A stretch of 64,000 bases of DNA from Escherichia coli (GTDB lineage: Bacteria; Pseudomonadota; Gammaproteobacteria; Enterobacterales; Enterobacteriaceae), in the NCBI RefSeq assembly GCF_044647545.1, contig NZ_CP172818.1; one strand, written 5' to 3'. A model generated the notes under the pieces. It was not told the DNA's origin and did not search any database. It worked only from the letters and a program-made list of their open reading frames with translations. The translations under genes were made by a program, and so were the position numbers. Positions 5,047 to 60,548 of this stretch are shown here, piece after piece. Every line of letters starts with the position of its first letter. The first letter of the stretch is position 1.

Positions 5047-5662
5047 GATTTACTAAAGGCTGCAACTGCTTCGCCATCCAGTCGGCAATAAACGGCTGGG
5101 CGTCGCGGTTGGGATGAATACCGTCATCCTGCATCCATTGTGGTTTGAGGTAGACCTCTTCCATAAAAAAGGGCAGCAGCGGAACATCAAACTCTTTGGC
5201 GAGTTTGGGGTAAATGGCGCTAAAGGCTTCATTATAACGGCGACCATAGTTTGCAGGCAGACGTATTTGCATTAACAATGGTTCAGCGTTGGTGGCTTTG
5301 ACCTCCTGCAAAATCTGGCGCAGCGTTTGCTCGGTTTGTTGTGGCTGAAAACCACGCAAACCGTCATTGCCGCCCAGTTCAACCAGCACCCAACGCGGCT
5401 GATGCTGTTTCAGCAGAGCCGGAAGGCGCGCCAGCCCTTGTTGCGAGGTGTCGCCGCTGATGCTGGCATTGACTACCGACGTTTTACTCTGCCACTTATC
5501 ATTCAACAAGGCAGGCCAGGCCGCGCTGGCAGACATTCGATACCCGGCGCTCAGGCTATCACCCAGAATCAATAACGTGTCCGCTGCAGCGGCACGGAAG
5601 GTTAACAGGACCAGGAACAGGAAGGGCAAATGCCAGCGGAAAACATTGTTGAAGTTCATCAT
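5036..5662 (-). CDS. tesA: Acyl-CoA thioesterase I / lysophospholipase L1 TesA (SGNH hydrolase)
   Basis: Signal peptide then GDSLSAGY SGNH motif; start chosen at MMNFNN. Confidence 0.9.
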   Translation of the reverse strand: MMNFNNVFRWHLPFLFLVLLTFRAAAADTLLILGDSLSAGYRMSASAAWPALLNDKWQSKTSVVNASISGDTSQQGLARLPALLKQHQPRWVLVELGGNDGLRGFQPQQTEQTLRQILQEVKATNAEPLLMQIRLPANYGRRYNEAFSAIYPKLAKEFDVPLLPFFMEEVYLKPQWMQDDGIHPNRDAQPFIADWMAKQLQPLVNHDS

Positions 5663-6316: not shown

Positions 6317-10182
<3,866 letters not shown>

Positions 10183-21976: not shown

Positions 21977-22090
21977 CTATTACCTTTAAAGCGGATGCGA
22001 TTTATATCGCATATTGACTACAAAAAAAGCCACGGAATAAACCGTGGCAAAATCCAACATAGCTAAAAATAATCAGGCGAGTGGTATGAC

Positions 22091-44853: not shown

Positions 44854-44972
44854 TTTCTTTCCTCTGTTATGCCATCACCCGCGCTCACCTGGACAGTATG
44901 CAGCGGAGACTGAAGCGCCGCAATGCAGGCTTGCCGTGTTGTGAGGTACCCGGATATTATCGTGAGGATGCG

Positions 44973-45311
44973 TCATCGCCATTGCTCCCCAAATACAAAA
45001 CCAATTTCAGCCAGTGCCTCGTCCATTTTTTCGATGAACTCCGGCACCATCTCGTCAAAACTCGCCATGTACTTTTCATCCCGCTCAACCACGACATAAT
45101 GCAGTCCTTCACGCTTCATACGCGGGTCATAGTTGGCAAAGTACCAGGCATCTTTTCGTGTCACCCACATGCTGTACTGCACCTGGGCCATGTAAGCCGA
45201 CTTTATGGCCTCGAAACCACCGAGCCGGAACTTCATGAAATCCCGGGAGGTACGAGTATTGCCGGAAGCGCGGGCTGTATCCGGATGCAGAGTCTTATCC
45301 GTGGAAATCAA
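44973..45311 (-). pseudogene. exoD: Lambda exonuclease-like C-terminal fragment
   Basis: 112-codon ORF with exo-like C-terminus, no intact N-terminus. Confidence 0.55.
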
Positions 45312-45349
45312 ACGCGCACTACTGGCTGGTTACCAACCTGTATCAGAAC

Positions 45350-45562
45350 ATGCGGGCCAATGCGTTGACTGACGCGGAATTACGGCGCAAGGCTGCCGAT
45401 GAACTGTCCTGTATGACCGCACGAATTAACCGTGGTGAGGCTATACCTGAACCAGTAAAACAACTTCCTGTCATGGGCGGTAGACCTCTAAATCGTGCAC
45501 AGGCTCTGGCGAAGATCGCAGAAATCAAAGCTAAGTTTGGGCTGAAAGGAGCAAGGGTATGA
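45350..45562 (+). pseudogene. peaD: Replication protein P-like C-terminal fragment, stop overlapping ren start
   Basis: 70-codon ORF ending in ATGA overlap with ren, the lambda P-ren junction arrangement. Confidence 0.5.
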
Positions 45563-45707
45563 CGGGCAAAGAGGCAATTATTCATTACCTGGGGACTCAT
45601 AAGAAATTCTGTGCGCAGGACGTTGCCGCGGTAACAGGCGCAACGGTAATCTGATCTTACCCAGCAATAGTGGACACGCGGCTAAGTGAGTAAACTCTCA
45701 GTCAGAG

Positions 45708-46016
45708 GTGACTCACATGACAAAAACAGTATCAACCAGTAAAAAACCCCGTAAACAGCATTCGCCTGAATTTCGCAGTGAAGCCCTGAAGCTTGCTGAA
45801 CGCATCGGTGTTACTGCCGCAGCCCGTGAACTCAGCCTGTATGAATCACAACTCTACAACTGGCGCAGTAAACAGCAAAATCAGCAGACGTCTTCTGAAC
45901 GTGAACTGGAGATGTCTACCGAGATTGCACGTCTCAAACGCCAGCTGGCAGAACGGGATGAAGAGCTGGCTATCCTCCAAAAGGCCGCGACATACTTCGC
46001 GAAGCGCCTGAAATGA
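45708..46016 (+). CDS. insE: IS3 transposase OrfA
   Basis: 102 aa [35 protein letters not shown]. Confidence 0.9.
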
Positions 46017-46879
46017 AGTATGTCTTTATTGAAAAACATCAGGCTGAGTTCAGCATCAAAGCAATGTGCCGCGTGCTCCGGGTGGCCCGCAGCGGCTGGT
46101 ATACGTGGTGTCAGCGGCGGACAAGGATAAGCACGCGTCAGCAGTTCCGCCAACACTGCGACAGCGTTGTCCTCGCGGCTTTTACCCGGTCAAAACAGCG
46201 TTACGGTGCCCCACGCCTGACGGATGAACTGCGTGCTCAGGGTTACCCCTTTAACGTAAAAACCGTGGCGGCAAGCCTGCGCCGTCAGGGACTGAGGGCA
46301 AAGGCCTCCCGGAAGTTCAGCCCGGTCAGCTACCGCGCACACGGCCTGCCTGTGTCAGAAAATCTGTTGGAGCAGGATTTTTACGCCAGTGGCCCGAACC
46401 AGAAGTGGGCAGGAGACATCACGTACTTACGTACAGATGAAGGCTGGCTGTATCTGGCAGTGGTCATTGACCTGTGGTCACGTGCCGTTATTGGCTGGTC
46501 AATGTCGCCACGCATGACGGCGCAACTGGCCTGCGATGCCCTGCAGATGGCGCTGTGGCGGCGTAAGAGGCCCCGGAACGTTATCGTTCACACGGACCGT
46601 GGAGGCCAGTACTGTTCAGCAGATTATCAGGCGCAACTGAAGCGGCATAATCTGCGTGGAAGTATGAGCGCAAAAGGTTGCTGCTACGATAATGCCTGCG
46701 TGGAAAGCTTCTTTCATTCGCTGAAAGTGGAATGTATCCATGGAGAACACTTTATCAGCCGGGAAATAATGCGGGCAACGGTGTTTAATTATATCGAATG
46801 TGATTACAATCGGTGGCGGCGGCACAGTTGGTGTGGCGGCCTCAGTCCGGAACAATTTGAAAACAAGAACCTCGCTTAG
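46013..46879 (+). CDS. insF: IS3 transposase OrfB (DDE)
   Basis: 288 aa DDE integrase-core ORF in -1 frame relative to orfA. Confidence 0.9.
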
Positions 46880-47189
46880 GCCTGTGTCCATATTACGTGG
46901 GTAGGATCAACCAGCATAAATCAGGCTGCGGCTAAAATGGCACGGGCAGGTCTTCTGGCTATCGAAGGTAAGGTCTGGCGAACGGTGTATTACCGGTTTG
47001 CTACCAGAGAAGAACGGGAAGGAAAGGTGAGCACGAATCTGATTTTTAAGGAGTGTCGCCAGAGTGCCGCGATGAAACGGGTATTGAGGGTATATAAAAG
47101 AACATCAATGGGTACACAATGATGAAACAGGTGAGTTGAGTTCAAACTGTAGTACAATTCTCTCCAGTTTGAACAGGAAAGAATATTCT

Positions 47190-47522
47190 ATGAACCCTTA
47201 TATTTATCTTGGTGGTGCAATACTTGCAGAGGTCATTGGTACAACCTTAATGAAGTTTTCAGAAGGTTTTACACGGTTATGGCCATCTGTTGGTACAATT
47301 ATTTGTTATTGTGCATCATTCTGGTTATTAGCTCAGACGCTGGCTTATATTCCTACAGGGATTGCTTATGCTATCTGGTCAGGAGTCGGTATTGTCCTGA
47401 TTAGCTTACTGTCATGGGGACTTTTCGGCCAACGGCTGGACCTGCCAGCCATTATAGGCATGATGTTGATTTGTGCCGGTGTGTTGGTTATTAATTTATT
47501 GTCACGAAGCACACCACATTAA
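47190..47522 (+). CDS. emrE: Small multidrug resistance efflux protein EmrE
   Basis: 110 aa from MNPYIYLGGAILAEVIGTT with conserved membrane-embedded Glu14. Confidence 0.9.
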   Translation: MNPYIYLGGAILAEVIGTTLMKFSEGFTRLWPSVGTIICYCASFWLLAQTLAYIPTGIAYAIWSGVGIVLISLLSWGLFGQRLDLPAIIGMMLICAGVLVINLLSRSTPH

Positions 47523-47553
47523 AAATAATTTGTTTCTAAACGACTAAAATATG

Positions 47554-47587
47554 GAGGCTCTTATATTTATATGAGCCTCGTTTTATG
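47554..47587 (+). terminator. Rho-independent terminator after emrE
   Basis: GAGGCTC-12 nt loop-GAGCCTC followed by GTTTT. Confidence 0.5.
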
Positions 47588-47778
47588 CTTTTTGTTAATG
47601 TCTTTATTTTTTTATGTATTCTTTTGTGCTTTCAAGATTATGGCGTAAGAAAATTGCAATACGATTATTGTTGTATATTCAAGATAATGTGACCTTAATT
47701 GTCTTTTTAAATAAAAATTAAACAAAAATTATATCCCACCACTAAGGTTTATAAAAGCATACGTTAGCAGGTGTCACC

Positions 47779-49305
47779 ATGAAAAAAGCCATAGCATATA
47801 TGCGATTTTCATCACCAGGTCAGATGTCTGGCGACTCATTAAACCGACAGAGAAGACTTATTGCTGAATGGTTAAAGGTAAATAGTGATTATTATCTTGA
47901 TACCATAACATATGAAGATTTAGGATTAAGTGCATTCAAAGGAAAGCATGCACAATCAGGAGCTTTTTCGGAATTTTTAGATGCTATAGAGCATGGTTAT
48001 ATATTGCCAGGAACTACATTGTTAGTTGAAAGTCTGGACAGACTTTCAAGAGAAAAAGTCGGTGAAGCGATTGAACGTCTGAAATTGATTTTGAATCACG
48101 GTATTGATGTTATAACTCTTTGCGACAATACAGTCTATAATATTGACTCTTTGAATGAGCCATATTCATTAATAAAAGCCATACTTATAGCACAAAGGGC
48201 AAATGAAGAAAGCGAGATAAAGTCAAGTCGGGTTAAATTATCATGGAAGAAAAAACGGCAGGATGCACTGGAATCAGGTACGATTATGACGGCGTCTTGT
48301 CCGAGATGGCTCTCCTTAGATGACAAAAGAACGGCTTTTGTTCCAGACCCCGACAGGGTGAAAACTATTGAGCTAATTTTTAAACTCAGGATGGAAAGGC
48401 GCTCATTGAATGCAATAGCCAAGTATTTAAATGATCATGCTGTAAAGAATTTCTCAGGAAAAGAAAGTGCATGGGGACCTTCTGTAATTGAAAAATTATT
48501 AGCGAATAAAGCTCTGATAGGTATATGCGTACCTTCATATCGTGCAAGAGGTAAAGGAATAAGTGAAATCGCTGGCTATTATCCCAGAGTCATATCAGAT
48601 GATTTGTTTTACGCTGTACAGGAAATTCGGTTGGCACCTTTTGGTATTAGCAATAGTAGCAAAAATCCTATGTTGATAAATCTACTTCGAACAGTTATGA
48701 AGTGCGAGGCTTGTGGTAATACCATGATTGTTCATGCGGTATCTGGAAGTTTGCATGGCTATTATGTTTGTCCGATGAGAAGACTGCATCGATGTGACAG
48801 GCCATCAATAAAGAGAGATTTGGTTGATTATAATATCATTAATGAGTTGCTTTTTAATTGTAGTAAAATCCAACCAGTTGAAAACAAGAAAGATGCTAAT
48901 GAAACTTTAGAGTTGAAAATTATTGAGCTCCAGATGAAAATTAATAATTTAATTGCTGCATTATCTGTTGCGCCTGAAGTTACCGCTATAGCAGAAAAAA
49001 TCAGAGTATTAGATAAGGAATTACGAAGGGCTTCTGTATCATTAAAAACTTTGAAGAGTAAAGCGGTGAGTTCACTTGGTGATTTTCATGCTATTGACTT
49101 AACCAGTAAAAATGGGCGAGAGCTATGTCGTACACTTGCCTATAAAACATTCGAAAAAATCATAATCAATACAGATAATAAAACCTGTGATATCTATTTT
49201 ATGAATGGCATTGTTTTTAAACACTATCCTTTAATGAAAACAATATCCGCCCAGCAGGCGATAAGTACTCTCAAATATATGGTTGATGGTGAGGTTTATT
49301 TTTGA
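47779..49305 (+). CDS. ybcK: Large serine recombinase-like protein
   Basis: N-terminal resolvase catalytic domain (AYMRFSSPGQ), recombinase domain and Cys-rich zinc ribbon. Confidence 0.85.
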   Translation: MKKAIAYMRFSSPGQMSGDSLNRQRRLIAEWLKVNSDYYLDTITYEDLGLSAFKGKHAQSGAFSEFLDAIEHGYILPGTTLLVESLDRLSREKVGEAIERLKLILNHGIDVITLCDNTVYNIDSLNEPYSLIKAILIAQRANEESEIKSSRVKLSWKKKRQDALESGTIMTASCPRWLSLDDKRTAFVPDPDRVKTIELIFKLRMERRSLNAIAKYLNDHAVKNFSGKESAWGPSVIEKLLANKALIGICVPSYRARGKGISEIAGYYPRVISDDLFYAVQEIRLAPFGISNSSKNPMLINLLRTVMKCEACGNTMIVHAVSGSLHGYYVCPMRRLHRCDRPSIKRDLVDYNIINELLFNCSKIQPVENKKDANETLELKIIELQMKINNLIAALSVAPEVTAIAEKIRVLDKELRRASVSLKTLKSKAVSSLGDFHAIDLTSKNGRELCRTLAYKTFEKIIINTDNKTCDIYFMNGIVFKHYPLMKTISAQQAISTLKYMVDGEVYF

Positions 49306-49500
49306 GTAATAATCTTTTTTACGTCGTGCTATAGTAAGAAAGTGCAAGACAGAATTAATTATCTTTGACGAAACTTAATGGGTAATTACTTTGTTTGCTC
49401 CCACAAGCGAGTTTTGTACGGCTGTATTGGGGTAGTAAATGAGCTATACAATCTTAATCATTTGTTAGGTGAGAACTCTTGGTCGCAGATTCAAATACTG

Positions 49501-49550
49501 AAAATACGTGACAAATTATTATGAGCAAAATGGTGTATGTCACGTATTTT
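49501..49550. repeat. Perfect 13-bp inverted repeat (AAAATACGTGACA / TGTCACGTATTTT) with 24-bp spacer
   Basis: Read directly in ybcK-ybcL intergenic region. Confidence 0.6.
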
Positions 49551-49762
49551 GAATGGTAGGTTAAAAAATAACACCGACTTTCGTAGGTATTACTAATAAT
49601 AAAGCAGAGTTTTTAGATAGTATCAATGTGCTTTGTGTATATTGTGGCAAATAATTGGGTTGCTGAGGGGTAGAATGTGATTGCTTTTGCATGAACACTT
49701 TATGCATAATGAGATAAAGGAATATCAAATAAAGAACGATAGGTCATAACAAAGAGGTTTTT

Positions 49763-50312
49763 ATGAAAACACTTATCGTTTCAACTGTATTGGCATTCAT
49801 AACATTTTCTGCGCAGGCTGCAGCATTTCAGGTCACTAGTAATGAAATAAAAACAGGAGAGCAACTTACAACGTCTCATGTCTTTCTCGATTTGGGTGTG
49901 AAGGTGGTAATACATCGCCCTCATTAACCTGGTCTGGTGTTCCTGAAGGTACCAAAAGCTTTGCCGTAACTGTATATGATCCAGATGCACCTACAGGCAG
50001 TGGTTGGTGGCATTGGACTGTTGTTAATATTCCAGCAACAGTAACATATTTTCCGTTGATGCAGGGAGACGTGATGGAACAAAACTGCCGACTGGTGCTG
50101 TTCAAGGCCGAAATGATTTTGGCTATGCTGGGTTTGGTGGCGCATGTCCTCCTAAAGGAGATAAACCACATCATTACCAGTTTAAAGTATGGGCTCTAAA
50201 AACTGAAAAGATTCCTGTAGATTCTAACTCCAGCGGAGCGTTAGTTGGTTATATGCTTAATGCTAATAAAATCGCAACCGCTGAGATAACACCAGTTTAT
50301 GAGATAAAGTAG
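49763..50312 (+). pseudogene. ybcL: PEBP/RKIP-family periplasmic protein gene disrupted by two single-base frameshifts
   Basis: Signal peptide frame stops after 54 codons; [13 protein letters not shown] segment in -1 frame; [10 protein letters not shown] segment in a further -1 frame; total 550 bp. Confidence 0.75.
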
Positions 50313-50321
50313 GGTGAGAGT

Positions 50322-51119
50322 ATGCTGGCAAGAGGTAAGACTAACTTAAAGATCGAAGAAATACGGATGCATAAACATCATGAGATTCATAGGGTTAAGC
50401 CTCTTATGCCAGCTTTGTGTCGTATCCGTCAGGGAAAGAAAGTTATCAATTGGGAGACGCATACTTTAACTGTTGATAATAATCAAATAATATTATTTCC
50501 TTGTGGTTATGAATTTTATATTGAGAATTATCCTGAAGCAGGGCTTTATCTTGCAGAAATGCTTTACTTACCCATTGATTTAATTGAGAGTTTCCAAAAA
50601 CTTTATACGGTAACTGATCAAATACGTAACAAAACAAGTTTCTTTTTACCTCAGAATCCTGAGTTAATATATTGTTGGGAGCAACTAAAAACATCTGTTT
50701 CCCGAGGCTTCTCAACTAAAATTCAGGAGCACTTAGCAATGGGCGTTCTACTTTCGTTAGGAGTGAATCATGTTAATCATTTACTTTTATCATATAGTAA
50801 ACAATCATTGATAAGTCGTTGTTATAACCTGCTGCTATCCGAACCCGGCACAAAATGGACAGCAAACAAGGTTGCTCGATATCTCTACATTTCTGTTTCT
50901 ACATTACATCGCCGTCTAGCAAGCGAGGGGGTAAGTTTCCAAAGTATACTGGACGATGTGAGGTTAAATAATGCGTTGTCTGCTATACAAACGACGGTAA
51001 AACCTATAAGCGAGATTGCCAGAGAAAATGGTTATAAGTGTCCTTCTCGTTTTACTGAAAGATTTCATAATCGTTTTAATATAACACCAAGAGAGATAAG
51101 AAAAGCTTCCAGAGAGTAA
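50322..51119 (+). CDS. ybcM: AraC-family transcriptional regulator
   Basis: C-terminal AraC HTH ([26 protein letters not shown]). Confidence 0.8.
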
Positions 51120-51333
51120 AAGTGTTTTAAGAAGGAGCAATTCTATCGATTTTGATTTGCGATAATCAACTCGCCATAATCATGTCATCGGAGCCTGAAC
51201 AACTCCGGTGACTTCTGCGCTAAACGGGGACGTTTATGCGCACACACAATCCAAACTCTCTTCTCCCTCCACAGATGCAGAAATGCACCTGCGATATATT
51301 GTATCCAGCGTTTGACCTCTGCGGAGGTGAAGC

Positions 51334-53458: not shown

Positions 53459-54653
<1,195 letters not shown>

Positions 54654-56110
54654 TTAGTGAAGTCATTTTTGTCAAGCAGGTTGATTTTGTAATCAACGAA
54701 AGTAGACATATTTTTGTTGAAGTAATAGGTTGCACCTACATCAACATATTTGACTAAGTCCTGATCGCCCCATACTCCAAGATCCTTACCTTTAGATTGC
54801 AGGTAAGCAACGGACGGACGCAGACCGAAATCGAACTGATATTGTGCAACAGCTTCGAAGTTTTGGGCTTTATTAGCAACGAAGTGATCAGCAAATACAG
54901 TCATATTCTGGGTTTCAGAATAGGTAGTGGCCAGGTAAATGTTGTTAGCGTCATATTTCAGACCTGCGGCCCAAACTTCTGCATTTTTACCGGAAGCAAA
55001 TACTTCAGGAAGAACTTTCCCTGCATTAACTTGAGTGTCGGTACGATCAGATTTCGCATAAGTTGCACCGATACCGAATCCTTCGTATTCATAGGTAGCA
55101 GAGAAACCGAAGCCATCACCGTTACCTTCAGTGTAGTTATCGAAATCGCTACGATCGTTTTTGCCTTGGTACTGAATCGCAAAATCAAGACCATCAACCA
55201 GGCCAAGAAATCATAGTTACGGTAGGTTGCAACACCGTTGGTACGACCATTCATGAAGTTGTCAGCGGAAGCCCAGGAATCGCCACCCCATTCAACTAAC
55301 ATATCGGTATAAGCTGCGGCATCATAAGCAACACCGTAGTTACGGCCATAGTCAAATGACCACTCGTTATATTTCAAACCGGCGAAGGTTAAACGGGTTT
55401 TTTCCTGGTTTTCACCTTCGGGCTTGCTGGCGTCGAGGTTGTATTCAAACTGACCAAAACCAGTCAGTTCGCTGGTGATTTGGGTTTCACCTTTGAAGCC
55501 AAGACGGGCATAAGTAGTATCACCATCATCTGCATCATTAGAGGAGAAGTAGTGCTTAGCATTAACTTTCCCGTACAGATCCAGCTTGTTACTGTCTTTA
55601 TTATAAATTTCAGCTGCCTGAGCAGACATCGCCATTAGTACTGATGCAGCTACAGCAGAAATTGCCACTGTTAATTTTTTCATCGTGAGCCCTTTTTTTG
55701 AACTATTATTAAAAAATGATGTCACTGCGCGATAAATATTCATCTAATCAATGTGATTATTTCAAGATGTAAGTTTTGGTTTCTCGTTTGATTTGTGAAG
55801 TAGATCTCTATTTTTATCTGAACTTTTTTCTATCGAATCCTATTCATGGCTCTTGGCTGAATAAAAATAAATCTATTAGCCAATTTATATTAACGGCTGT
55901 TATTTATAAGTGCTCTATAATTTGAAGGTTCAATTTAAACCGGCTAAAAATAACACTGGAAATTATTTTTTGGTTATTTGTTGAGATTTGCTTATGTATT
56001 TGTAGTGGTGTTTTCAATACTCGGTAGCATTCTCTCAAATATCATTTAGTGGTTTACGTACGTAAAAAATTGGTTATGCTGTTAAGAGTGGTTACTTCGT
56101 CACACAGCTT

Positions 56111-56258: not shown

Positions 56259-56474
56259 ATGAAATCCATGGATAAGTTAACAACGGGCATTGCCTACGGC
56301 ACCTCCGCAGGCAGTGCTGGCTACTGGTTTTTACAGCTGCTCGATAAAGTCACGCCCTCACAGTGGGCAGCAATAGGTGTGCTGGGTAGCTTGGTATTTG
56401 GCCTGCTGACGTACCTGACAAACCTTTATTTCAAGATTAAAGAAGATAAGCGCAAGGCTGCGAGAGGTGAATAA
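56259..56474 (+). CDS. essD: Class I holin (lambda S-like)
   Basis: 71 aa small TM protein heading the lysis cassette. Confidence 0.9.
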
Positions 56475-56971
56475 TGCCTCCATCATTACGAAAAGCCGTT
56501 GCTGCTGCTATTGGTGGCGGAGCAATTGCTATAGCATCAGTGTTAATCACTGGCCCAAGTGGTAACGATGGTCTGGAAGGTGTCAGCTACATACCATACA
56601 AAGATATCGTTGGCGTATGGACTGTATGTCACGGGCATACAGGAAAAGACATCATTCCCGGTAAAACGTATACCGAAGCAGAATGCAAAGCCCTCCTGAA
56701 TAAAGACCTTGCCACGGTAGCCAGACAAATTAACCCGTACATCAAAGTCGATATACCGGAAACAACGCGCGGCGCTCTTTACTCGTTCGTCTATAACGTG
56801 GGCGCAGGCAATTTCAGAACATCTACTCTTCTTCGCAAAATAAACCAGGGCGATATCAAGGGCGCATGTGACCAGCTACGTCGCTGGGCATACGCTGGCG
56901 GTAAGCAATGGAAAGGCCTGATGACTCGTCGTGAGATTGAGCGTGAGGTCTGTTTGTGGGGGCAACAATGA
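56474..56971 (+). CDS. rrrD: Phage lysozyme (T4 e-like endolysin)
   Basis: 165 aa ORF with glycoside hydrolase 24 catalytic E...D...T region. Confidence 0.9.
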
Positions 56972-57342
56972 GCAGAGTCACCGCGATTATCTCCGCTCTG
57001 GTTATCTGCATCATCGTCTGCCTGTCATGGGCTGTTAATCATTACCGTGATAACGCCATCGCCTACAAAGAACAGCGCGATAAAAAAGTCAGTGAGCTGA
57101 AGCAGGCGACCGCCACCATTACTGACATGCAGCAGCGCCAGCGTGATGCTGATGCACTCGATGCTAAATACACGAAGGAGTTAGCTGATGCGAAAGCTGA
57201 AAATGATGCTCTTCGGCGCAAGCTTGATAATGGTGGTCGGGTGCTCGTCAAAGGAAAATGCCCTGTGCCATCCTCAGCCGAAACCTCCAGCGCCTCCGGC
57301 ATGGGCAATGATGCCACCGTCGAACTCAAAGACCGAGAATAA
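56968..57342 (+). CDS. rzpD: Rz-like spanin (i-spanin), apparently truncated by frameshift
   Basis: [32 protein letters not shown]-terminus as in lambda Rz; frame stops after 124 codons. Confidence 0.7.
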
Positions 57343-57445
57343 AAACTATCCAGTTAGCGACGAATATCTGGACCCAATTATCGCGACCAAAACAGCACTG
57401 AGAACGCTTCAGGAATTCATCAGGACGCAATGTCCTTCGAGATAG
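57188..57445 (+). CDS. rzoD: Rz1-like o-spanin lipoprotein frame with abnormal 3-prime extension past the Rz stop
   Basis: Embedded +1 frame with lipobox MVVGC and Pro-rich segment; tail resembles Rz C-terminus. Confidence 0.5.
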
Positions 57446-57601
57446 CGATTATTTTACTCATCATTCCCTTCACATCTGGCTCTGTAGACAGTTCACTTCT
57501 GAAATCCAATAAACATCTCATTCTGATGCTTGATATTGAGCATTTTGCGCGCGGTAAGGGGCTGCGTTGAGATAAGAACCAGTAAAAATAAACCAGGATT
57601 T

Positions 57602-57663
57602 AGCCTCGCATTCGCGGGGCTTTTTATTGCCATTACAAAAGCCACTTCCTACAGAGTGGCTTT
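57602..57663. terminator. Back-to-back hairpins (bidirectional terminator) after lysis cassette
   Basis: GCCTCGC..GCGGGGCTTTTT and AAAAGCCACT-8 nt-AGTGGCTTT. Confidence 0.45.
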
Positions 57664-57919: not shown

Positions 57920-58330
57920 TTAGTGCGGAAATATTTGTGTAGTGTTCTGAATGTTCTCAGTAAAGAGTAATGAATTATCAAAGGTATAGTAATACCTTTT
58001 GTTTTCGTGGATATTTGTAATCCATCTGAAAACCCCTGCTGTAGCAAGATTTTTCCTGTATTCGTAAAATGATAACTCTCCTGATTTGAATCCTTTTAAG
58101 GTGGCTTCTATAAGGCATTTATTTTTTGAAAATCTTACATTTACAACCTTACCCTGTCCTTTTATTAAAACCGTATTATCGTTTTCAAGAACAAGATGAA
58201 TATTCTCTGTAGCTAAATAGTAAATGTAATGTGAGACATTGTGACGTTTTAGTTCAGAATAAAACCAGTGATAGTTTAAATTATTTCGCACTTTATCGAA
58301 TATTTGTTTAAAAATGGCAACCTGAGCCAT
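57920..58330 (-). CDS. ybcV: DUF1398-family prophage protein
   Basis: [21 protein letters not shown]... Confidence 0.75.
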
Positions 58331-58662
58331 TGTGGTACCTTCCATGTGATATGAGGGGCGTAGTCTGCACGATTATCTAAATTGCTTCAATCTGGTCTGA
58401 TTTTTGAGAATTTAAATAAGCAGATTAGAAGGGAAACGCTGAAATTCATGTTGTTTTCAATAAACAAAGAATGGACGAAAAATCATAAAGACAATACTGC
58501 CAGGACAGGTTAAAAACTATCTTAATACACATTCGATGGTTAGATGTTTAATCATGTATAGAACATCATACCTAAAATACTAAAAGCAAAAGAAACGAAG
58601 GAATCCTCTATAATTAATCTATCAAAGAAGAGAATACGTATCTGACTAAGAGACTAATCAAC

Positions 58663-58896
58663 TCAGCAATCCTCGTATTTAGGGAATACAATACGTCCAG
58701 TGTCACTCTTTTCTTTGTTTGCTTCAGGAGAAACTCTTTTTTCTGAGCACAGTCTCCGGCGGCAGGCTTCAATGACCCAGGCTGAGAAATTCCCGGACCC
58801 TTTTTGATCAAGAGCGATGTTAATTTGTTCAATCATTTGGTTAGGAAAGCGGATGTTGCGGATTGTTGTTCTGCGGGTTCTGTTCTTCGTTGACAT
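58663..58896 (-). CDS. ylcI: DUF3950-family small protein
   Basis: ORF MSTKNRTRRTTIRNIRFPNQMIEQINIALDQKGSGNFSAWVIEACRRR. Confidence 0.65.
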   Translation of the reverse strand: MSTKNRTRRTTIRNIRFPNQMIEQINIALDQKGSGNFSAWVIEACRRRLCSEKRVSPEANKEKSDTGRIVFPKYEDC

Positions 58897-59079
58897 GAGG
58901 TTGTCCCGTATTTAGTGTCGCTGATTTGTATTGTCTGAAGTTGTTTTTACGTTAAGTTGATGCAGATCAATTAATATGATACCTGCGTCATAATTGATTA
59001 TTTGACGTGGTTTGATGGCGTAGATGCACGTTGTGACATGCAGATGATAATTATTATCATTTTGCGGGTCCTTTCCGGC

Positions 59080-59284
59080 GATCCGACAGGTTACGGGGCG
59101 GCGACCTCGCGGGTTTTCGCTATTTATGAAAAATTTCCGGTTTAAGGCGTTTCCGTTCTTCTTCGTCATAACTTAATGTTTTTATTTAAAATACCCTCTG
59201 AAAAGAAAGGAAACGACAGGTGCTGAAAGCGAGCTTTTTGGCCTCTGTCGTTTCCTTTCTCTGTTTTTGTCCGTGGAATGAACA
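59080..59284 (+). other. Lambda-type cos region: cosN (GGGCGGCGACCT at 59096-59107) and cosB upstream of Nu1
   Basis: Sequence matches remembered lambda left-end and right-end junction ...CGACAGGTTACG|GGGCGGCGACCTCGCGGGTTTTCGCTATTTATGAAAA. Confidence 0.8.
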
Positions 59285-59830
59285 ATGGAAGTCAACAAAA
59301 AGCAGCTGGCTGACATTTTCGGTGCGAGTATCCGTACCATTCAGAACTGGCAGGAACAGGGAATGCCCGTTCTGCGAGGCGGTGGCAAGGGTAATGAGGT
59401 GCTTTATGACTCTGCCGCCGTCATAAAATGGTATGCCGAAAGGGATGCTGAAATTGAGAACGAAAAGCTGCGCCGGGAGGTTGAAGAACTGCGGCAGGCC
59501 AGCGAGGCAGATCTCCAGCCAGGAACTATTGAGTACGAACGCCATCGACTTACGCGTGCGCAGGCCGACGCACAGGAACTGAAGAATGCCAGAGACTCCG
59601 CTGAAGTGGTGGAAACCGCATTCTGTACTTTCGTGTTGTCGCGGATCGCAGGTGAAATTGCCAGTATTCTCGACGGGCTCCCCCTGTCGGTGCAGCGGCG
59701 TTTTCCGGAACTGGAAAACCGACATGTTGATTTCCTGAAACGGGATATTATCAAAGCCATGAACAAAGCAGCCGCGCTGGATGAACTGATACCGGGGTTG
59801 CTGAGTGAATATATCGAACAGTCAGGTTAA
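59285..59830 (+). CDS. nohD: Terminase small subunit (Nu1 homolog)
   Basis: 181 aa [39 protein letters not shown], matching remembered lambda Nu1. Confidence 0.9.
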
Positions 59831-60548
59831 CAGGCTGCGGCATTTTGTCCGCGCCGGGCTTCGCTCACTGTTCAGGCCGGAGCCACAGACCGCCGTTGAA
59901 TGGGCGGATGCTAATTACTATCTCCCGAAAGAATCCGCATACCAGGAAGGGCGCTGGGAAACACTGCCCTTTCAGCGGGCCATCATGAATGCGATGGGCA
60001 GCGACTACATCCGTGAGGTGAATGTGGTGAAGTCTGCCCGTGTCGGTTATTCCAAAATGCTGCTGGGTGTTTATGCCTACTTTATAGAGCATAAGCAGCG
60101 CAACACCCTTATTCCAGCTGGCTTCGTGGCTGTTTTCAACAGTGATGAGTCATCGTGGCATCTCGTTGAAGATCATCGGGGTAAAACGGTTTATGACGTA
60201 GCGTCAGGGGACGCGTTATTTATTTCTGAACTCGGTCCGTTACCGGAAAATGTTACCTGGTTATCGCCGGAAGGGGAGTTTCAGAAGTGGAACGGTACAG
60301 CCTGGGTGAAAGATGCAGAAGCAGAAAAACTGTTCCGGATTCGGGAGGCGGAAGAAACAAAAAACAGCCTGATGCAGGTAGCCAGTGAGCATATTGCGCC
60401 ACTTCAGGATGCTGTAGATCTGGAAATCGCAACGGAGGAAGAAACCTCATTGCTGGAAGCCTGGAAAAAATATCGGGTGTTGCTGAACCGTGTTGATACA
60501 TCAACTGCACCTGATATTGAGTGGCCTACGAACCCTGTCAGGGAGTAA
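59805..60548 (+). pseudogene. aaaD: Fusion of terminase large subunit N-terminus (lambda A) to tail fiber assembly C-terminus
   Basis: [19 protein letters not shown]... (A N-term) switches near 60110 to Tfa-like sequence ending [17 protein letters not shown]... Confidence 0.75.

Follow-up and report, generated by a model that had tools for sequence, protein, structure and literature searches.

The window, a 64,000-nt stretch of Escherichia coli DNA, contains the cryptic prophage DLP12, at a locus where the sfm cluster and tRNA-Arg/intD are followed by ...essD-rrrD-Rz-DUF1398 gene-nohD, an order also found in ECONIH1, 4973 and K-12-like strains. The late part of the element runs from a Q-type antiterminator gene through an IS5-family element, an nmpC-like porin gene, essD, rrrD, Rz/Rz1, the DUF1398 gene and nohD to the start of a terminase gene, where homology to the 1926-nt ECONIH1 gene stops early, at window position 60112. 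The features of this region are:

53605-54621: open reading frame of the IS5-family transposase beside the porin gene
54958-55743 and 54626-54904, minus strand: the two reading frames of the split porin gene
56259-56474, plus strand: essD holin gene, 71 aa, intact (annotated as 'phage lysis protein EssD', WP_000839582.1, in strain 4973)
56474-56971, plus strand: rrrD endolysin gene, 165 aa, intact (annotated as 'lysozyme RrrD', WP_001135261.1, in strain 4973)
56968-57342, plus strand: truncated Rz (i-spanin) gene, from ATG 56968 to TAA 57340-57342, 124 aa
57188-57445, plus strand: Rz1-frame open reading frame, 85 aa, in the +1 frame
57327-57348, plus strand: frame-breaking junction, 22 private nucleotides (CAAAGACCGAGAATAAAAACTA) against CTC in intact alleles, net +19, including TAA 57340-57342 (from an anchor-by-anchor comparison with 4973)
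57347-57445, plus strand: part encoding the Rz C-terminus, with the distal coiled-coil and the final QC motif, displaced into the Rz1 frame
57329-57401, plus strand: displaced native Rz1 C-terminal coding sequence, in the third frame, ending at the ancestral Rz1 stop TGA 57399-57401 (from three-frame translations)
57327-57591: private divergent patch of 265 nt, covering the 3' end of Rz/Rz1 and the region of a small downstream open reading frame (from a difference map against 4973)
57602-57621, plus strand: terminator-like hairpin closing the lysis cassette
57920-58345, minus strand: DUF1398 gene

Downstream of the holin and endolysin genes, which show zero differences from strain 4973 (56259-56975), the Rz frame ends after 124 codons at TAA 57340-57342, and an Rz1-like frame with a lipobox and a proline-rich region continues in +1 to 57445, 103 nt past the Rz stop. 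The preliminary description of this locus had reported both frames, and its coordinates were confirmed. An alternative Rz start at GTG 56956 gives a product of 128 aa. The truncated Rz has cysteines at residues 14, 18 and 98 only and is missing the conserved C-terminal cysteine (the equivalent of lambda C152). The Rz1-frame ATG is preceded, at a distance of 7 nt, by an AAGGAG motif, and the 85-aa product is composite. Residues 1-47 are Rz1, with a signal peptide, the lipobox VVGC at residues 16-19 (Cys19), Cys27 and the proline-rich region; residues 48-53 are junction sequence; and residues 54-85 are 32 residues of displaced Rz C-terminus, the QC motif of which now lies at residue 82 (Cys82). 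From its lipobox signal, this product is predicted to be processed as a lipoprotein.

The last ~30 residues of the Rz1-frame product had been likened to the C-terminus of lambda Rz. They do match an Rz C-terminus, but one of a different type: against HK620-type Rz the tail peptide gave a local BLOSUM62 score of 79 (shuffles had a mean of 17.8 and a maximum of 38, with 0/2000 reaching 79), whereas against the lambda/K-12-type C-terminus it scored 31, a value reached by 23/2000 shuffles. The lambda C-terminus given in the preliminary description was itself correct, as K-12-type RzpD is 153 aa long and ends ...ERDYFTLRERLITMQKQLEGTQKYINEQCR (...YINEQCR), a lambda-type module that the window allele does not carry. 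Lambda Rz/Rz1 and the K-12 DLP12 pair rzpD/rzoD (153 aa and 60 aa, embedded) share prophage locus, gene order and Pfam families with the window, and the N-terminal part of their Rz is homologous to it. However, DNA homology to rzpD stops near query position 313-316, corresponding to window ~57212, and the C-terminal module beyond is of a different type with weak similarity, and lambda/K-12 RzpD was rejected as a template. K-12 DLP12 also has bor downstream, which the window does not.

Judged by alignment, the proper comparator is the HK620/PS119-type Rz rather than lambda Rz or K-12 RzpD. In this type a 155-aa Rz wholly embeds a 68-aa Rz1 (ending PPSNSLQLLDETFSVSGTELSATKQH) in the +1 frame, and its genes occur in many phages and, among complete E. 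coli genomes, in about 1,600. Window DNA is nearly identical to the HK620/PS119-type pair (HK620 Rz, AAK28885.1) from the Rz start to 57326, which covers Rz residues 1-119 and Rz1 residues 1-47, and the displaced C-terminus matches this type again at TALRTLQE[F/Y]IRTQC. The window differs in having 22 nt where this type has 3 nt (the junction), in lacking 12 nt in frame and in two pairs of compensating indels; the outcome is an Rz of 124 aa against 155 aa and an Rz1 of 85 aa that is not embedded. Intact 155-aa/68-aa embedded pairs homologous to that of the window occur in E. coli 4/1-1, Ayreon, HK620 and SPN9CC, and the E. coli 'lysis proteins' of this type, WP_000092273.1 and WP_001341210.1, each have an unannotated embedded Rz1. 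The essD-rrrD-Rz/Rz1 order of the window recurs in E. coli 4/1-1, Ayreon and 4973, while HK620 itself pairs this type of Rz with lambda-type S and R. The C-terminal module hardly varies among 80 IMG/VR loci, which makes the version in the window an outlier. A tblastn search of phages with the rejoined peptide gave 83 matches at ≤58% identity, all of them at Rz or lysis-protein loci where the record was annotated.

Profile models placed the products in the same families and located what each has lost. With Pfam PF03245 (Rz, cut-off 25.4 bits), the truncated Rz covers positions 1-94 of 126 (73 bits), the rejoined Rz 1-125 of 126 (83.9 bits), and an intact allele scores 100.9 bits. With PF06085 (Rz1, cut-off 27.9 bits), the 85-aa product scores 47.6 bits in a match that begins at residue 19 and covers 1-29 of 41; the rejoined 70-aa Rz1 also covers only 1-29 of 41, against 41/41 for the Rz1 of the intact allele. 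NCBIfam spanin models gave zero matches, intact alleles included. The Rz polypeptide retains the N-terminal membrane anchor and proximal coiled-coil, residues 1-119 being essentially identical to intact alleles. It carries neither the C-terminal periplasmic cysteine nor the full-length periplasmic domain with its Rz1-contacting distal coiled-coil, the remainder of which is encoded in the +1 frame. On the Rz1 side, the lipoprotein signal, proline-rich region and proximal periplasmic cysteine are all present, and the conserved C-terminal segment (profile positions 30-41) is absent from the native and the rejoined product alike. The Rz1 side of the window allele is thus diverged whatever the frame.

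We located the break by measuring lengths between conserved anchors in the window and at the same locus of strain 4973, in which the essD-nohD late region has the same annotated proteins as ECONIH1. The N-terminal half of Rz contains 13 SNPs against 4973 within 56976-57164, a cluster suggestive of another short tract of gene conversion, distinct from the patch, within Rz; over the aligned part shown, the window there has the allele of Ayreon and E. coli 4/1-1. From 57165 to 57326 the window is identical to 4973. The patch at 57327-57591 is only 77% identical to that of 4973, and after 57591 near identity returns, with 58701-60112 being 100% identical; both flanks of the patch are essentially identical to 4973/ECONIH1. 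Within Rz, the +19 at 57327-57348 is the sole length change that breaks the frame. From TCCAGTT to the Rz stop, every length difference is divisible by three (-12, 0, 0 and 0). In two of the blocks with zero difference a +1 and a -1 cancel out locally, with RDQ becoming ATK and CLR* becoming CPSR* as a result. The 22-nt junction sequence has no second copy in the window, and a local duplication was rejected as the source of the 19-22-nt junction.

With any single base of 57315-57340 taken out, Rz reads through to 158 aa and again embeds an Rz1, of 70 aa, which bears out the earlier proposal that the Rz C-terminus has moved into the Rz1 frame. The restored Rz1 ends ...PKQH at the ancestral stop TGA 57399-57401, the same conserved TGA at which the Rz1 of an intact allele ends ...TELSATKQH. 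The preliminary description had attributed the shift to a single-base insertion near 57338-57345, perhaps a T within an A run. The net +1 shift that truncates Rz and swaps the frames holds, but compared with every known sequence the change is a 265-nt patch with +19 at the junction, and a simple one-base difference from a known allele was rejected, the nearest alleles differing by the whole patch. Both T57340 and the three A at 57328-57330 are among the bases whose removal restores Rz; with a base gone from the A run 57341-57345, by contrast, the TAA stays in frame and Rz is not restored. By this measure the extra base could be any of those in 57315-57340.

We regard it as unlikely that one T was inserted into the A run at 57340 (GAAAAAAAAC to GAATAAAAAC) of an otherwise intact, functional Rz/Rz1 pair. 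Taking out T57340 does give back an Rz of 158 aa and an Rz1 of 70 aa, and a single late lesion fits with the remaining Rz C-terminal indels, all of which preserve the frame. However, other bases in 57315-57340 restore the pair equally well, slippage in the AAA run at 57328-57330 would be a more ordinary event than insertion of a T, and the collections searched held no in-frame allele to show the ancestral state. Nor does 'otherwise intact' describe the rejoined Rz1, which is unrecognised over its C-terminal third.

Random noise or the filling of a gap with uncorrected reads is likewise disfavoured as the origin of the patch: the other indels in the Rz C-terminal coding block all preserve the frame, which argues for a genuine coding allele that has diverged rather than for noise. 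A chimera of E. coli alleles was also rejected, as no sub-match was significant at E≤10 in 5,426 E. coli genomes. An Rfam search in and near the patch found nothing above noise. The patch also spans a small open reading frame at 57430-57570 (46 aa, ending LMLDIEHFARGKGLR), which corresponds to a 50-aa 'hypothetical protein' found 3' of Rz in many genomes (WP_001139675/678). Its indels are +2, -7, -4, -2 and -1, a net -12, so that its ends are in frame and its middle is in a different frame, a pattern which suggests that this is not a conserved protein.

We considered whether the extra base could be a sequencing or assembly error, the real genome having an in-frame 158-aa Rz, and judge this very unlikely. 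The candidate sites include short homopolymers, and a second single-base frameshift lies 2.1 kb away in a 3-base homopolymer of the porin gene, at 55206; both lesions are located in patches of diverged sequence, and paralogous reads could mislead polishing there. On the other side, the backbone shows one SNP and one 14-nt deletion but no single-base indels relative to ECONIH1 over about 40 kb (apparent gaps are alignment edges), which makes sequencing error unlikely and led us to reject an indel-prone assembly. Moreover, errors do not typically arise in homopolymers of 3-5 bases, and frameshifts are expected in a cryptic prophage with other decay. An identical truncated product of 128 aa, counted from the GTG start, is also recorded for an NCBI genome, although on a single contig that is probably the same assembly as the window.

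The porin gene is, to judge by its reading frames, a second single-lesion pseudogene in the same prophage. Within this nmpC-like gene on the minus strand, a ~340-nt tract (55157-55494) matches a paralogous porin gene next to drpB, of a type (WP_000824355.1) that is widespread in E. coli. The tract, read as gene conversion from that paralogue, carries one in-frame 3-nt deletion and the single-base homopolymer deletion at 55206 that splits the reading frame. Further signs of decay in the prophage are the IS5-family transposase next to this gene and the early end of the terminase homology.

Several other differences from ECONIH1 were observed. The 14-nt deletion (CTTTTTTTACCTGA) is a clean one at 22012, in the glxK-allE intergenic region, and is the sole indel in 20 kb of otherwise identical backbone; the eight top-ranked genomes all align over the same 20,015 bases and probably share the undeleted form. 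The ybbP-mnmH intergenic segment at 8701-9032 is shorter and different in the window. The window also does not have the ISEcp1-blaCTX-M-15 insertion and an IS1 of ECONIH1 (~19540, ~41780), and its prophage early region (44950-51150) is much more deleted, with common blocks that are 100% identical. Apart from these differences, an AT-rich segment of ~300 nt (58402-58702) sits at the edge of the ylcI/ynfO-family gene of BS-01, HS-01 and 4973; BS-01 and HS-01 have no intervening sequence here and 4973 has 24 nt. The segment had no megablast match in 5,426 E. coli genomes, and sensitive alignment related it to the K-12 ybcW region, from which it has diverged with many deletions (score 33 vs a shuffle maximum of 28).

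We searched for the window allele in several collections. A 75-nt core, 57318-57392, gave no blastn match among 5,426 complete E. coli genomes at a threshold as loose as E≤10. The allele, in or out of frame, was absent from phage records in both DNA and protein searches, and there was no match in IMG/VR (exact pattern and peptide patterns), in JGI metagenomes or in the GTDB species-representative genomes. A set of 5.8 billion proteins held no in-frame copy; the best proteins were ordinary HK620-type Rz, and the matches of 158 aa were alleles of this type with an additional SAS repeat. A protein search with a short peptide, which gave no candidates, says nothing either way.

Of the other DLP12 copies, those of 4973 and ECONIH1 come closest. 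At the same locus, Rz is 155 aa in 4973 and ECONIH1, 153 aa in the K-12 type, and disrupted in E. coli BS-01 and HS-01. None of the copies compared shares the arrangement of the window, so the interpretation given in the preliminary description was not refuted by this comparison. The Rz genes of BS-01 (ACIA67_RS02745) and HS-01 (ACIA69_RS02755) are flagged by PGAP as pseudogenes, 'incomplete; missing C-terminus', and offer a precedent for a broken Rz at this site. Both are identical to the window up to GTCGAACT and then enter a private divergent patch of their own. These patches are 65-71% identical to that of the window and more decayed: BS-01 has additional shifts, with an Rz-C-terminus-like peptide (DDFYPIIRSKHALRE) in the +1 frame, and in HS-01 the C-terminus has been replaced. 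The equivalents of window 57327-57591 are positions 5320-5590 of the BS-01 locus (L005) and 5293-5540 of the HS-01 locus (L006). The patches of these two strains are indel-rich and 61-71% identical to the others, and downstream deletions are common to both and the window. No donor was found for the BS-01, HS-01 or window patches in the collections searched. Private, indel-rich sequence following the same junction in three DLP12 copies is a feature that an account by gene decay does not explain.

The likely consequences for function can be gauged by analogy with lambda, which has a different spanin subtype. In lambda Rz, nonsense mutations up to codon 152 are all lysis-defective, codons 151 and 152 included, and the last residue alone is dispensable; the second coiled-coil, CC2, comprises residues 121-150, and its end contacts Rz1 (PMC5295617). 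At 124 residues, the window Rz breaks off close to where the region matching CC2 begins, ahead of the distal coiled-coil. For lambda Rz1, W46X, L50P/R and I54N are defective and truncations are tolerated only from S55 onward (PMC5295617), and the window Rz1 departs from its family at residue 48, about lambda Q47 in a hand alignment, to continue with 38 foreign residues. As the lesions in both genes fall at residues needed in lambda, both products are expected to be inactive as spanins, and a predicted spanin-null allele would lie beside an intact holin and endolysin.

The frame-shifted pair also resembles a known class of spanins. In the overlapped class, the o-spanin gene begins within the i-spanin gene and extends beyond its stop (Kongari et al., 2018, PMC6139136), as in phage T5 (PMC6139136). 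The coordinates of the window pair (56968-57342 and 57188-57445) formally fit this definition, and an embedded (lambda-like) architecture appears only after removal of one base. Such a pair could work, with a short Rz (TMD, CC1 and linker) and an o-spanin that carries the distal Rz helix and cysteine. Both reading frames are open, start signals are kept, and the displaced Rz C-terminus shows frame-preserving indels only. We nonetheless consider a working overlapped pair highly improbable. In true overlapped pairs the extension is o-spanin sequence, whereas here it is the frame-shifted C-terminus of the i-spanin, homologous to i-spanin C-termini only, and because of this we regard the overlapped layout as a by-product of the shift rather than as membership of the class. 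By analogy, lambda Rz truncations and Rz1 changes at residues 46-54 abolish lysis. No phage or other genome searched has this arrangement, the host element is a dead prophage, and no spanin family with both embedded and overlapped members emerged from published surveys (PMC6139136). Even more distant is the prospect that the allele represents a functional stage, found in nature, on the way from one architecture to the other, with the distal Rz helix and disulfide-forming cysteine now covalently part of the outer-membrane lipoprotein. If true, the periplasm-spanning complex would be split at a new point (TMD-CC1-linker / lipid-PRR-CC2), and this would be an embedded-to-overlapped transition within one family, something the published survey of spanins did not encounter.

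Programmed +1 ribosomal frameshifting at GAA-TAA-A could also be imagined to yield full-length Rz, and the stop codon at the site with its A-rich tract superficially recalls prfB-type recoding. A prfB-type site has a P-site codon able to re-pair and an upstream Shine-Dalgarno-like stimulator, and neither is present: read from CGA GAA TAA AAA, the P-site GAA cannot re-pair in the +1 frame (AAU), and there is no Shine-Dalgarno-like sequence just upstream. The site is also not conserved, intact relatives being without the 19 extra bases, and we give this reading almost no credence.

We conclude that the locus quite probably holds a pseudogenised HK620-type spanin pair in a cryptic DLP12 prophage, disabled by a net +1 shift in an imported patch. 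The starting state would have been an HK620/PS119-type pair, with an inner-membrane Rz of 155 aa and an outer-membrane lipoprotein Rz1 of 68 aa embedded in the +1 frame. The patch at 57327-57591 most likely came in by gene conversion over a short tract, from a lambdoid allele that has not been sampled, and the net +1 change within 57327-57348 would most simply be one extra base somewhere in 57328-57340. This shift rotates all three frames. Rz stops at TAA 57340 after 124 residues, without its distal coiled-coil, its Rz1-binding end and its C-terminal cysteine; Rz1 has lost its own C-terminal 21 residues and reads through the former Rz C-terminus to reach 85 residues; and the old Rz1 tail and stop are stranded in the third frame. 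The frames, their homologies, the location of the break and the uniqueness of the allele in the collections searched are direct results. We infer that an in-frame ancestor of the allele once existed, an intact state inferred and not observed since no collection searched held an in-frame copy, and that the lesion is a real mutation. Because the rejoined Rz1 covers only 1-29 of 41 model positions, the pair was not necessarily perfect before the shift, and the allele may already have been impaired, as the lower score of the rejoined Rz and the Rz1 C-terminal model part that is not regained would suggest. The pair almost certainly represents ordinary gene decay in a dead prophage, one that would be evolving by short-tract gene conversion from diverged homologues and by single inactivating lesions.

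Such a pair is unsurprising for a cryptic prophage, and is notable only for an allele found nowhere else in the collections searched. For annotation, both reading frames should be treated as a disrupted HK620-type Rz/Rz1 pair, not as a short 'lysis protein' and an unusually long o-spanin, and the pair should not be compared with K-12 rzpD/rzoD. The locus also provides a concrete case in which a single indel makes an embedded gene pair formally 'overlapped', a route that surveys treat only hypothetically (PMC6139136). Work on K-12 has tied the lysis module of DLP12 to upkeep of the cell wall and to the formation of biofilms and vesicles (PMC7918800), and a natural spanin-null allele could serve as a comparison strain for the phenotypes of this module.
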